In this document: piece after piece, positions 1-3,000 of the stretch | How the letters are laid out: each line of letters opens with the position of its first letter | Numbering within the stretch: position 1 is the stretch's first letter | Assembly (NCBI GenBank): GCA_964354805.1 | Contig: CAYHBD010000038.1 | Location: 1-19,254, forward strand | DNA: 19,254 bases | Direction of reading: 5' to 3' | From: an uncultured archaeon | GTDB lineage: Archaea > Iainarchaeota > Iainarchaeia > Iainarchaeales > GCA-2688035 | Made by a program: the position numbers

Positions 1-3000
1 CCAAAGACGACTTTTATTGCAGGCCGTTTGCCGGAAAAAACCTGCCCGAAAAGTATTTAAATGAGACCAGCGGATATAGTTATACTGAGAGCCTAGCTGC
101 ATTGCGTTAAGCAATGCAATTAATGCGATTTTTTTACCAGCAACGGCTTTGCAAAAAGCGTTCTGCTGGGAGCAATGACTTAGCTTGAGCACACGCATGT
201 GTGCGCTAGCATGTGGGCTCGATGACAAGCCTTTTGCAAAGCAAAAGGCTTTGTGAAGAATTTTTTTTTCCCAAGGATTTTTTCCGAAGGAAAAAAAAGC
301 TTTGCAATTGCGAAGCAATTGCATTTTTTCCCAAGGCTTTTTTGGGTGAGCAAAAAAGGCTTAATGAGTGCCACAGTTTTTTGTGGCATGATGCAGGCTT
401 GTGAAAACAGGGCAACGCACCGAATTTTTTTTCGTTGCATTGCTTTGTTTAAGAAAGTTGTTAACCAATTCCAAATGGGTTTCCAAAACACTGAATTGAA
501 TTGCGGCAACAACCATCTAAATTTAATTCTGTGTAATTCCAGCTGATCCTGCTGGAGGATACTGCTATCGAAATCCGATTTAGACATGCAAGTTTCAAAG
601 GCGTATACGGCGTCTTTGGCGAACGGCTCAGTAACACGTGGATAATCTAACCTTGAGATGGGTTAAACCCGGGAAACTGGGGGTAATGCCATATAAGCAA
701 TTGATACTGGAATGTTCAATTGCTGAAAAGGAGTTGCACCATGCAAATTTCCGCTCAAGGGTGAGTCCGCGGTGGATTAGGTTGTTGGCGGGGTAAATGC
801 CCACCAAGCCTTTGATCCATACGGGCCTTGAGAGAGGTAGCCCGGAGAAGGACACTGAGATAAGGGTCCTAGCCCTACGGGGTGCAGCAGTCGCGAAAAC
901 TTTACAATGCGCGAAAGCGTGATAGGGGGATTTCGAGTGCAAGCTTTGCTTGCTTTTGCCAGGCCTAAAAAGCCTGGCGAATAAATGGGGGGCAAGATAC
1001 GTGCCAGCCGCCGCGGTAATACGTACTCCATGAGTGGTATCCACTTATATTGGGCCTAAAACGTCCGTAGCATGTCCAAAAAGTCTTTGGTGAAAGCAAT
1101 TGGCTTAACCAATTGAAATGCCAAAGAAACTTTTGGGCTAGAGGCCGGAAGAGGTCAAGGGAATTTCAAGGGTAGCGGTGAAATGCTATGATCCCTGAAA
1201 GACCCCCAGTAGCGAAGGCGCTTGACCAGTACGGACCTGACCGTGAGGGACGAAAGCTGGGGGAGCGACCCGGATTAGATACCCGGTTAGTCCCAGCCGT
1301 AAACGATGTGGACTTGGTGTCCTAGTACCCAAGAGGTACAGGGGTGCCGTAGGGAAGCCGTTAAGTCCACTGCCAGGGAAGTATACTCGCAAGGGTGAAA
1401 CTTAATGGAATTGGCGGGAGCTCACTACAAGGGGTGGATGCTGCGGTTCAATTGGATACAACCCCAGATAATCTTACCAGGGCCGACAGCAGAATGATGG
1501 ACAGGCTGAAGGTCTTTCCTGACGCGCTGAGAGGTGTTGTATGGTCATCGTCAGCTCGTACTACGAAGCGTCCTGTCAACTCAGGTAACGGGCGAGACCC
1601 ACATCCATAGTTGCTATTTGCCATTTCTGGCAAAGCACTCTATGGAAACTGCAGTGGCAACACTGAGGAAGGAGTGGGCAACGGTAGATCTGTATGGCCC
1701 GAATGCCCTGGGCAACACGCGGCATACAATGGCTGAGACAATGAGTTCCGAGCCCGAAAGGGTAAGGTAATCCCCTAAACTTAGCCTCAGTTCGGATTGA
1801 GGGTTGTAACTCACCCTCATGAATGACTGGAATCCCCAGTAATCGCGCTTCATTAAAGCGCGGTGAATACGTCCCTGAGCTTTGCACACACCGCCCATCA
1901 AGCCAGTTGAGTGAGGTTCGGATGAGTAGTTTTCGAAAGAAAAACACGATTCCGCGCTCCGCGAGACGGGCTAAGTTGTAACAAGGTGTCCGTAGGGGAA
2001 CCTGCGGACGGATCACCTCCTTCAATTTTCTTTTTAAAAAAAAGAAAATTGACTAAGAAAAAAAGCCCGGTTGCCAAGCAACCGGTTGCACAAGCCTGCA
2101 ATTATTTTTAGAGGGCAATCCTGTGAGGGTGCAAGAAGCCGGGAACCATCTGAGCGCGCACTCGCAGGAAAAACCGAGAGTGCGAACGAAAGTGAGCACA
2201 TTGGATTCGCGCAGCGAATCCGATTAATTCACAGCCGGAATTTGCCGGCTCTCGGAATTTGCCGAGTAGGGCTCATAGCTCAGTTGGTAGAGCGCTCCCC
2301 TTGCACGGGAGAGGCCACGGGTTCGAATCCCGTTGAGTCCAAACAGCTTTTCTTTTGGAAAAAGAAAAGCTGTATCAAAAGAAAACAGCTTCGCAGAAAA
2401 AGCTGTATCAAAGAAAAACAGCCAATTGCTTTGCAATTGGCAAGAAAAGTTGTTTGATTGGAGTGAAACAAAATGGCTGATGTAGCAACAATAGTAGGGG
2501 GGGCATTTCCGTCCGGGACGGTAATCGTGGTTGTAATAGCTATAATTGCGATAGTCGTGGCTTGGAAAGTGTTTAAGTTTACGGTGAAGAAGGTAAGCGC
2601 AGTTGTTCAGGGATTGGCTGCATTGGCATTGGTTGGATATGCCCTTACAGCAAACCCGTTGAACCTGACTGTTGCTTTTGGCATTGCGGGAATTGGAATA
2701 TTGTTTGGGGCGATCTCGAACATTTTCGGTTGAAAAGAAATTTGAATGCATGGAGGAAAATTAAATGAAAAAAGTTTTGCAGATAATCCAAGCAATCTTG
2801 GCGGCGTATGTTTTGGTTGCCTTTGTGTTGGGATTTTATGTGAATGTTCCAATGATTCCCGATGTGAAGGGAACTGCGCCTGGAATTGTTGTGGCAATAA
2901 TTGCGCTTTCAGTTGCGGTATTAATTGACGCAATTGCAGAGTTCGGTTGTTGCGAAACAAAAAAATAGTTTGTTTAGGCATTATATTCACAAATAGATTA

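Follow-up and report, generated by a model that had tools for sequence, protein, structure and literature searches.

A conserved small membrane-protein gene in the rRNA operon of a DPANN clade, and the possible release of its messenger RNA by pre-rRNA processing

The DNA considered here is a contig of 19,254 nucleotides (nt) from an uncultured archaeon of the Iainarchaeota (GTDB lineage Archaea; Iainarchaeota; Iainarchaeia; Iainarchaeales; GCA-2688035), namely contig CAYHBD010000038.1 of GenBank assembly GCA_964354805.1, positions 1 to 19,254 of the forward strand. We refer to this whole stretch as the window; it is contig C38 of a source bin of 1.38 Mb in 49 contigs that is 88.5% complete. 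The window carries a ribosomal RNA (rRNA) operon in which the genes for 16S rRNA, alanine transfer RNA (tRNA-Ala), two small open reading frames (ORF1 and ORF2) and 23S rRNA follow one another, in that order, on the same strand. Our subject is the two reading frames, and ORF1 above all. A preliminary description of the window had placed ORF1 (86 amino acids, aa) and ORF2 (67 aa), each with a Shine-Dalgarno motif, between tRNA-Ala and 23S. This layout is borne out by Rfam, ARAGORN and ORF calling; by Kyte-Doolittle analysis, ORF1 contains three hydrophobic spans and ORF2 two. The features of the operon and its immediate surroundings are as follows.

56–62, forward strand: TATA box of the rRNA operon promoter, TTTAAAT (11.4 bits on a matrix from the genome's tRNA and ribonuclease (RNase) P promoters)
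229–362, forward strand: T/A-rich palindromic elements with a T9 run, inserted in the 16S leader and missing from the otherwise alignable leader of the related genome G009
393–403, forward strand: 16S processing stem, 5' arm, pairing with 2089–2099 (perfect 11-nt complementarity and co-fold)
536–2021, forward strand: 16S rRNA gene (Rfam RF01959, 1402 bits)
2022–2052, forward strand: T-rich palindrome directly after 16S, within the 16S processing stem and upstream of its 3' arm (2089–2099)
2269–2341, forward strand: tRNA-Ala(UGC), CCA not encoded (ARAGORN and Rfam)
2343–2418, forward strand: terminator-like T-rich palindromic element, of the family found behind stand-alone tRNAs and RNase P RNA
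2460–2465, forward strand: ORF1 Shine-Dalgarno motif GGAGTG, 7 nt ahead of the ATG and complementary to the 16S 3' end
2473–2733, forward strand: ORF1, membrane protein of 86 aa with three hydrophobic spans (homologues, substitution ratios, synteny, codon score)
2741–2747, forward strand: candidate TATA-like site TTTGAAT between ORF1 and ORF2 (10.9 bits)
2752–2756, forward strand: ORF2 Shine-Dalgarno motif GGAGG, 8 nt ahead of the ATG and complementary to the 16S 3' end
2765–2968, forward strand: ORF2, 67 aa with two hydrophobic spans (codon score; insertion in the window only)
2980–2986, forward strand: ATTAYRT motif opening the 23S leader, kept in carriers and non-carriers of ORF1
2986–3017, forward strand: 23S leader hairpin 1, with covarying arms 2986–2993 and 3010–3017
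3022–3043, forward strand: 23S leader hairpin 2, with a U-rich loop (covariation)
3084–3165, forward strand: 23S processing stem, 5' arm, pairing with 6149–6290 (inverted repeats I1 and I2; co-fold −146 kcal/mol)
3166–6148, forward strand: 23S rRNA gene (Rfam RF02540, 2547 bits)
6247–6290, forward strand: 23S processing stem, 3' arm (inverted repeats and co-fold)
6294–6305, forward strand: T-rich run past the 23S stem, the likely end of the operon transcript, judged from sequence
6389–6669, forward strand: RNase P RNA (Rfam), with its own consensus promoter at 6357–6363

By its arrangement this is a linked archaeal operon, with the gene order kept on one strand and processing stems around each rRNA. 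The Rfam matches are full length (16S model positions 1–1478, 23S model positions 1–2987), and both rRNAs are flanked by complementary sequences that form the stems, the arms of which are conserved in relatives; the co-fold is a nearly continuous helix with small mismatches. The spacer between 16S and 23S measures 1144 nt, and its tRNA-Ala-to-23S portion, at 824 nt, is longer than in any of the 20 related operons measured (158–609 nt). Unlinked rRNA genes occur in reduced genomes, including those of DPANN archaea, and the definition of Brewer et al. 2020, as it is given in PMC8172020, calls for a separation of more than 1500 nt or for different strands. The window falls short of that distance, keeps strand and order, and has both stems intact. 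In G024, a genome of the same order, 16S and 23S lie about 144 kb apart.

ORF1 is, on the evidence of its relatives, a real protein-coding gene. A search of 5.8 billion proteins returned five relatives with 62–96% identity, and a profile search of 1.84 billion representatives added further, more distant ones of 76–87 aa. The NCBI record of one homologue names as its source a 'Candidatus Diapherotrites archaeon', a DPANN lineage. Family members share an invariant WKV and an invariant KK around a basic loop after the first helix, as well as a glycine-rich last helix that ends in a near-invariant SN motif, and the Shine-Dalgarno motif is kept as GGAGG or GGAGTG in all relatives. In a codon-aware comparison of five DNA copies, third-position differences exceed second-position differences 2- to 6-fold, and synonymous sites are at or near saturation (proportion of synonymous differences, pS, up to 0.85). 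The preliminary description had allowed for a lack of coding conservation; for ORF1 the opposite was found, with homologues at 43–96% identity across the family and ratios of nonsynonymous to synonymous substitution rates (dN/dS) of 0.07–0.36. Such a substitution pattern is not expected from a spacer RNA under structural selection, and ORF1 is coding sequence. Codon usage points the same way. Under a log-likelihood model trained on 473 long ORFs of the source genome, ORF1 scores +0.34 per codon in its own frame, where real genes have a median of 0.33 and antisense shadow ORFs reach 0.25 at their 99th percentile, and the other five frames of ORF1 and ORF2 score 0.00 or lower.

The family to which ORF1 belongs is best described, from these comparisons, as a conserved orphan family of small membrane proteins. 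It has no significant match in Pfam or NCBIfam (the best Pfam model being DUF7315, E 0.07–0.2), scores in the ESM Atlas reach at most 0.77, none of them significant, and a Foldseek comparison of the AlphaFold model with the PDB gave no significant fold match (E at least 1.6). That model consists of two long predicted helices, 14–59 and 65–85, with a predicted local distance difference test score (pLDDT) of 76. A few family members show weak, chance-level matches to the Vpu and holin families. A link of ORF1 to ribosomes, to the translocon or to the cell surface is a matter of speculation.

The place of ORF1 is conserved together with its sequence. In what follows, L012–L015 are metagenome contigs that carry an ORF1 relative, G-numbers are related genomes and P-numbers are homologous protein records. 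All five readable contexts of ORF1 relatives adjoin genes of an rRNA operon, and the orientation of ORF1 and its point in the operon are constant among them. In L012, L013 and L015, tRNA-Ala, ORF1 and the start of 23S lie on one strand, joined by the end of 16S where the contig reaches that far; L014 starts just upstream of ORF1, which is followed by 23S; and P0008 is a gene call of 181 aa, the N-terminal half of which is a read-through translation of tRNA-Ala and the C-terminal half an ORF1 homologue. An assembly chimera, a caveat raised in the preliminary description, is excluded for the tRNA–ORF1 and ORF1–23S junctions, as independent metagenome contigs share both.

Several of these junctions are remarkably tight. 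Between the end of tRNA-Ala and the ORF1 ATG there are 14 nt in L012 and 15 nt in L015, a gap that holds just GGAGG, and the distance from the ORF1 stop codon to ATTAYRT is 5–6 nt in L012–L014 (6 nt in L012) and about 61 nt in L015. In G010, a genome without ORF1, the same 23S leader begins 19 nt past tRNA-Ala, and tRNA-Ala and 23S would therefore form one unit there. An archaeal promoter takes about 30 nt upstream of the start site, so that none would fit into gaps of 14–15, 6 or 19 nt. In L012 and L015, then, neither a promoter nor a terminator would fit between tRNA-Ala and ORF1, and in such organisms tRNA-Ala, ORF1 and the 23S leader must share one primary transcript, unless promoters hide within tRNA or coding sequence.

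The leader that follows the reading frames is a structured RNA in its own right. It runs from ATTAYRT through hairpin 1, hairpin 2 with its U-rich loop and an AAGG box to the processing stem, and it is conserved in relatives with and without ORF1. The preliminary description had pointed to a weak TTATAT at 2981 as the nearest thing to a promoter before 23S; the sequence is present, and it belongs to this conserved ATTAYRT motif. In hairpin 2, 94% of cells are paired across 13 sequences and five of the eight pairs have changes on both sides, a level of covariation that none of 500 shuffles attained and that disappears once the partner is slid. In hairpin 1 the arms covary between lineages (TTCACAAA/TTTGTGAA, TTCATCAA/TTGATGAA, TCCGTC/GGCGGA) and are retained despite loop insertions of up to 53 nt. 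Because the 5' arm of hairpin 1 begins at ATTAYRT and covaries, the start of the transcript can lie no further downstream than the end of the ORF.

A like hairpin stands ahead of the 16S stem, at 373–390. The modules ahead of both stems (373–398 and 3022–3056) each consist of a covarying hairpin with a U-rich loop and then AUGAUGCA, resembling a C box; this duplication in leader and spacer recalls the bacterial boxB–boxA arrangement and could be an anti-termination or a processing signal. In G024, at L036 (G024:C1:521400-522400, minus strand), a consensus TATA box lies about 27 nt upstream of a ATTATATT motif, directly before the equivalent of hairpin 2. The ATTAYRT of linked operons may thus mark a start site where 23S stands alone.

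The rRNA promoter of these organisms is of a recognizable type. The genome's tRNAs and RNase P RNA have a clear TTTAAAT box about 30–39 nt before the gene, and on a matrix built from 13 such sites of its RNA genes there are three strong sites in the first 7 kb of the window: that of RNase P (13.6 bits), that at 56–62 (11.4 bits) and that at 2741–2747 (10.9 bits). G009, G008 and G015 have kept the box at 56–62 and the ensuing leader upstream of 16S. In L012–L015, G009, G011, G018 and G010, the stretch from tRNA-Ala to the leader hairpins of 23S has no site that reaches 8.4 bits, a lack that carries weight because the rRNA promoter itself is of the consensus type. The earlier statement that no TATA box with its B recognition element, of the kind seen at the window's other promoters, precedes the ORFs or 23S has to be amended, 2741–2747 being a candidate. 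That site lies within an insertion seen only in the window and starts 24 nt before the ORF2 ATG, with the Shine-Dalgarno motif in between; being so near the ATG, it could not serve ORF2 as annotated. About 0.2 hits like it are expected per spacer, an estimate that is an upper bound, since most genomic matches are real promoters. It could nevertheless contribute extra transcription of 23S.

What the sequences show is that ORF1 is under coding constraint and keeps its place in the operon, that the junctions are tight and the leader structures conserved, and that the genome has the processing enzymes; co-transcription, the sites of cleavage and translation, like any tie between what the protein does and the ribosome, are inferences. 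Our preferred reading, to which we assign a probability of roughly 0.6, is that the ORF1 messenger RNA (mRNA) is embedded in the precursor of the rRNAs (pre-rRNA) and is released by tRNA and rRNA processing. An mRNA excised from pre-rRNA was one of two possibilities offered in the preliminary description; for ORF1 it is favoured by the gaps of 14–15 nt, by the conserved, covarying 23S leader, whose start is 6–17 nt from the stop codon, and by the lack of a consensus promoter in the spacers of the closest relatives, with co-transcription as the step reached indirectly. A single transcript would run from the promoter at 56–62 through the leader, 16S, tRNA-Ala, ORF1, ORF2 (in this lineage) and 23S to 6294–6305. 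RNase P and RNase Z would free tRNA-Ala, and the RNase Z cut behind the discriminator base of the tRNA would create the 5' end of the ORF1 message, leaving in L012 and L015 a message leader of 14–15 nt that holds the Shine-Dalgarno motif only. Cleavage of the 23S stem would set the 3' side, with hairpins 1 and 2 staying on as a structured 3' untranslated region. Genes for RNase Z, EndA and RtcB are present in the genome, and that for RNase P RNA is in the window. Translation would begin at the Shine-Dalgarno motifs, with ribosomes loading on the released fragment or already on the nascent precursor, and the amount of ORF1 mRNA would follow rRNA synthesis. In this genome a strong Shine-Dalgarno motif stands before about 10% of ORFs, as against 1.4% in a control window, and a strong motif combined with a TATA box at the distance of a leaderless mRNA was seen in 6 of 128 cases, a pattern that fits the translation of genes from inside longer RNAs.

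A number of observations weigh against this reading. The cutting of the stems by EndA is an assumption. The gap between tRNA-Ala and ORF1 is 131 nt in the window and about 100–145 nt across the window, L013, L014 and P0008, and the nearest genomes compared, G009, G011 and G018, have neither ORF1 nor a relic of it in their spacers. Both 2741–2747 and the ATTAYRT at 2980–2986 could be internal promoters, and G024, with its unlinked 23S, has its consensus TATA box upstream of ATTAYRT. Further upstream, all close relatives share a conserved AT-rich motif, AATTAYNTTTA, behind the 3' arm of the 16S stem (2099–2110 in the window); its promoter score is 11.4 bits in L012, where it stands 60 nt after 16S, and 5–7 bits elsewhere. 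It is possibly an internal promoter for tRNA-Ala, ORF1 and 23S, or possibly part of the structure of a ligated spacer. The main argument, in our view, is the 76-nt element at 2343–2418. It belongs to a repeat family, a T-rich palindrome with an A-rich tail, that has 26 matches and 13 core copies in the genome, and members of this family stand directly 3' of about 9 of the 21 detected tRNAs and of the RNase P RNA (6671–6746). The element looks like a stable-RNA terminator, and a share of the polymerases may end their transcripts at it. The family resembles a bidirectional terminator and has related copies in sister genera (G009, G001, G012 and others).

An alternative explanation is that the operon is split: the transcript with 16S and tRNA-Ala would end at the T-rich palindrome behind the tRNA, and ORF1, ORF2 and 23S would depend on internal promoters of non-consensus type (for instance TTTGAAT at 2741, ATTATAT at 2980 or one within the A-rich repeats), making the ORFs ordinary small genes between two rRNA units. 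Besides the terminator-like element and the TATA-like site at 2741–2747, it can draw on the G024 arrangement and on TTTAAAA-like boxes 20–31 nt before ATTAYRT in G014 and G015. We nonetheless think it rather unlikely. An element of the 2343–2418 type is present in the gap of L013 and is not found in L012 and L015, where ORF1 abuts the tRNA and where, as also between tRNA and 23S leader in G010, a terminator or promoter has no room. Moreover, palindromes of the same kind lie inside RNA that is necessarily transcribed as pre-rRNA: one, present in relatives too, stands behind the 16S 3' end and still upstream of the 16S stem's conserved 3' arm; runs of T6–T7 lie between the mature 23S ends and the 23S stem arms; and the window's 16S leader has an insertion of about 130 nt of T-rich palindromes, T9 included, between the conserved promoter and the 16S stem. 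The element at 2343–2418 need not stop the polymerase, because rRNA transcription must read through like elements in the leader and the stems. (A perfect 19-nt complementarity between 16S leader and 23S trailer, I10, was considered as a clasp of the precursor ends and set aside, copies of the palindromic repeat explaining it better.) As for the internal promoters, the 5' arm of hairpin 1, which starts at ATTAYRT, covaries with its partner and is therefore transcribed, the spacers of the closest relatives lack a consensus promoter although that of 16S is of the consensus type, and the site at 2741 belongs to the window-only insertion and is too near the ORF2 ATG.

Two further explanations concern what the reading frames are and why they are there. 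That they are untranslated by-products of a conserved, structured spacer RNA is highly improbable. The spacer has few stop codons on either strand, with antisense ORFs at 2224–2751 (175 aa) and 2607–3008 (133 aa), and archaeal spacers do hold conserved structures; but the antisense ORFs were rejected on codon score, gene-like codon usage being confined to the annotated frame, and in ORF1 amino-acid motifs are kept while codons change, third positions vary in excess, and the Shine-Dalgarno motif and start codon are conserved. For ORF2 the counter-evidence consists of its codon usage and Shine-Dalgarno motif only. A different proposal is that ORF1 and ORF2 are hitch-hiking or selfish insertions, for example a small membrane peptide, pore-forming or toxin-like, of mobile-element origin, which take advantage of the cell's most strongly transcribed locus and are unrelated to ribosome production. 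It addresses the reason for the genes' presence and is compatible either with release from the pre-rRNA or with separate transcription units. Such a selfish origin would suit the interleaving of carriers and non-carriers described below, the mosaic appearance of ORF1 in the window, the clean and recent insertion of ORF2, the unrelated small ORF at the same spot in G015, and the chance-level resemblance of a few family members to Vpu and holins. It is improbable all the same, given strong and long-lasting purifying selection on ORF1, the constancy of its orientation and operon position, and a search that found no recombinase, endonuclease, terminal repeats or second genomic copy.

The history of ORF1 can be followed through a small tree built from rRNA ends, in which the carriers (the window with L013; L012; L015) stand among non-carriers (G009, G011, G018). 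Searches of 40 relatives and of 215 genomes from the phylum did not turn up ORF1, and a scan of contigs for it gave a sole match, bacterial and spurious. By this evidence ORF1 was either ancestral to the clade and cleanly lost several times, or moved between operons by recombination. In the window it looks like a mosaic: its first 30 or so residues resemble L013 and L014, and its last 56 or so are 96% identical to P0003, which has a shorter and different N-terminus, a pattern suggesting that rRNA operons of separate lineages have recombined. Because the arrangement is old under either history, the other possibility offered in the preliminary description, an early stage of operon unlinking, does not fit; synonymous sites are saturated, the rRNA ends of carriers differ by about 4–21%, and the arrangement is compact and stable, with a spacer of 1144 nt that stays below 1500 nt. 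Taken together, the sequences indicate that ORF1 has long been resident, within one Diapherotrites/Iainarchaeota clade (DPANN), in the spacer between tRNA-Ala and 23S of a linked rRNA operon.

ORF2 is a different case. It is absent from L012–L015, in which ATTAYRT follows the ORF1 stop codon, whereas in the window it follows that of ORF2; with its Shine-Dalgarno motif, ORF2 makes up a clean insertion of about 235 nt, both junctions of which are known from the window alone. Neither the 5.8 billion proteins nor the 121 genomes from the order that were searched gave a homologue. Its codon score is +0.31 per codon in frame, close to the gene median, and its Shine-Dalgarno motif is perfect; from these two properties of a single sequence we think it probable that ORF2 is a real gene. 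The two genes of the preliminary description therefore stand on unequal footing, ORF1 being conserved and ORF2 a window-only insertion backed by codon statistics and a Shine-Dalgarno motif alone. Under our preferred reading ORF2 would have entered the same transcript later, probably as another gene for a small membrane protein.

Two possible sources of ORF2 were considered and not adopted. Weak matches (E 6e-4 to 0.05) fall in the same stretch of open frames of about 450–490 aa in 27 genomes; the frame is identified as SecY by Pfam in G000 only (G000:C9:75867-76028, residues ~253–302) and is presumed to be so in the others. A SecY origin has a pairwise E of 4e-4, but the Pfam SecY model gives no backing, and the likeness is probably noise from hydrophobic segments. 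Derivation from the second half of ORF1 by duplication and divergence is no more than suggestive: a blastp match to P0009 spans all of ORF2 with E 0.002, shuffle z values are 1–5, and the hhalign E is 0.034 at 1.5% probability. In G015, which belongs to a different genus, an unrelated basic, helical-looking ORF of 67 aa lies between tRNA-Ala and the 23S leader (L018:673-876; G015:C57:2372-2572). It is unique among the 23 family members searched, and is either a gene at the same landing site or a product of chance. The spacer between tRNA and 23S may thus be a recurrent landing site for small genes.

Beyond the operon, the RNase P RNA is followed by a gene for alanyl-tRNA synthetase (6802–8562), which seems to be leaderless, its ATG standing 29 nt behind a TATA box. 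Genes for tRNA-Ala, RNase P RNA and alanyl-tRNA synthetase thus cluster around the rRNA operon.

Transcripts that combine stable RNA with mRNA are known from bacteria, for example secG-leuU and thrU-tyrU-glyT-thrT-tufB of E. coli, in which the nucleases that process tRNA split the mRNA from it. The likeness to secG-leuU lies in a tRNA and an mRNA on one transcript and in a small membrane protein as the product, and the hallmarks of such a mixed unit, a common strand and no room for a promoter or terminator, are found in L012 (14 nt) and L015 (15 nt). These bacterial operons differ in lying outside rRNA operons, in being processed by RNase P and RNase E and, for secG-leuU, in placing the mRNA before the tRNA. 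The release proposed here would be an archaeal counterpart of mitochondrial tRNA punctuation. Another parallel is offered by crenarchaeal rRNA introns, some of which carry ORFs for LAGLIDADG homing endonucleases that make the intron mobile. There, too, a protein is encoded within an rRNA primary transcript and freed by RNA splicing or processing, but those ORFs lie in introns of the rRNA genes themselves, whereas ORF1 lies in the spacer and encodes a membrane protein with no match to an endonuclease family; neither ORF1 nor ORF2, both in the spacer, resembles a homing endonuclease of rRNA introns by Pfam or NCBIfam.

In model archaea, EndA and RtcB excise the rRNAs at their stems, ligate them and join the leftover spacers (Juttner et al. 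2020, PMC7038931). The order 16S, tRNA-Ala, 23S and the long flanking stems are the same as here, and this maturation provides a route to a spacer-derived RNA; the spacer RNA of the model archaea is non-coding, though, and a spacer fragment that serves as mRNA has not been described there. Closer in genomic setting are candidate phyla radiation (CPR) bacteria, some of which have genes that code for proteins, on the same strand, between 16S and 23S that the authors count as still operonic (PMC8172020). As with ORF1, these are ultra-small organisms with reduced genomes, and the gene stands beside a spacer tRNA. They differ in being bacteria with both tRNA-Ile and tRNA-Ala, in that the genes named are often homing endonucleases, and in gaps of 300–500 nt that leave their status open (PMC8172020). 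The ORF1 locus, by contrast, is that of an archaeon with processing stems, codes for a conserved membrane protein and has, in relatives, gaps of only 14–15 nt and 6 nt. For a protein gene in an archaeal 16S–23S spacer we found no report in the literature covered, which does not extend to subscription journals.

The usual assumption is that archaeal rRNA spacers do not code for protein, and they tend to be passed over by gene callers and by pipelines that mask rRNA. We regard as evenly poised the broader proposal that, in this DPANN clade, the pre-rRNA doubles as the precursor of an mRNA, with a membrane-protein message punctuated out by RNase Z and stem processing and made in step with rRNA. 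The locus offers a test bed for three general problems: how the archaeal RNA polymerase ignores oligo-T tracts in rRNA operons, what becomes of excised spacers, and whether ribosomes can load onto nascent pre-rRNA. If ORF1 truly lacks its own promoter, it would show, in a clean natural example, an mRNA produced by the enzymes that process stable RNA. Should the proposal be true, a minimal genome would express a gene with neither promoter nor terminator of its own, and the supply of a membrane protein would be tied to ribosome synthesis in organisms with minimal regulation.

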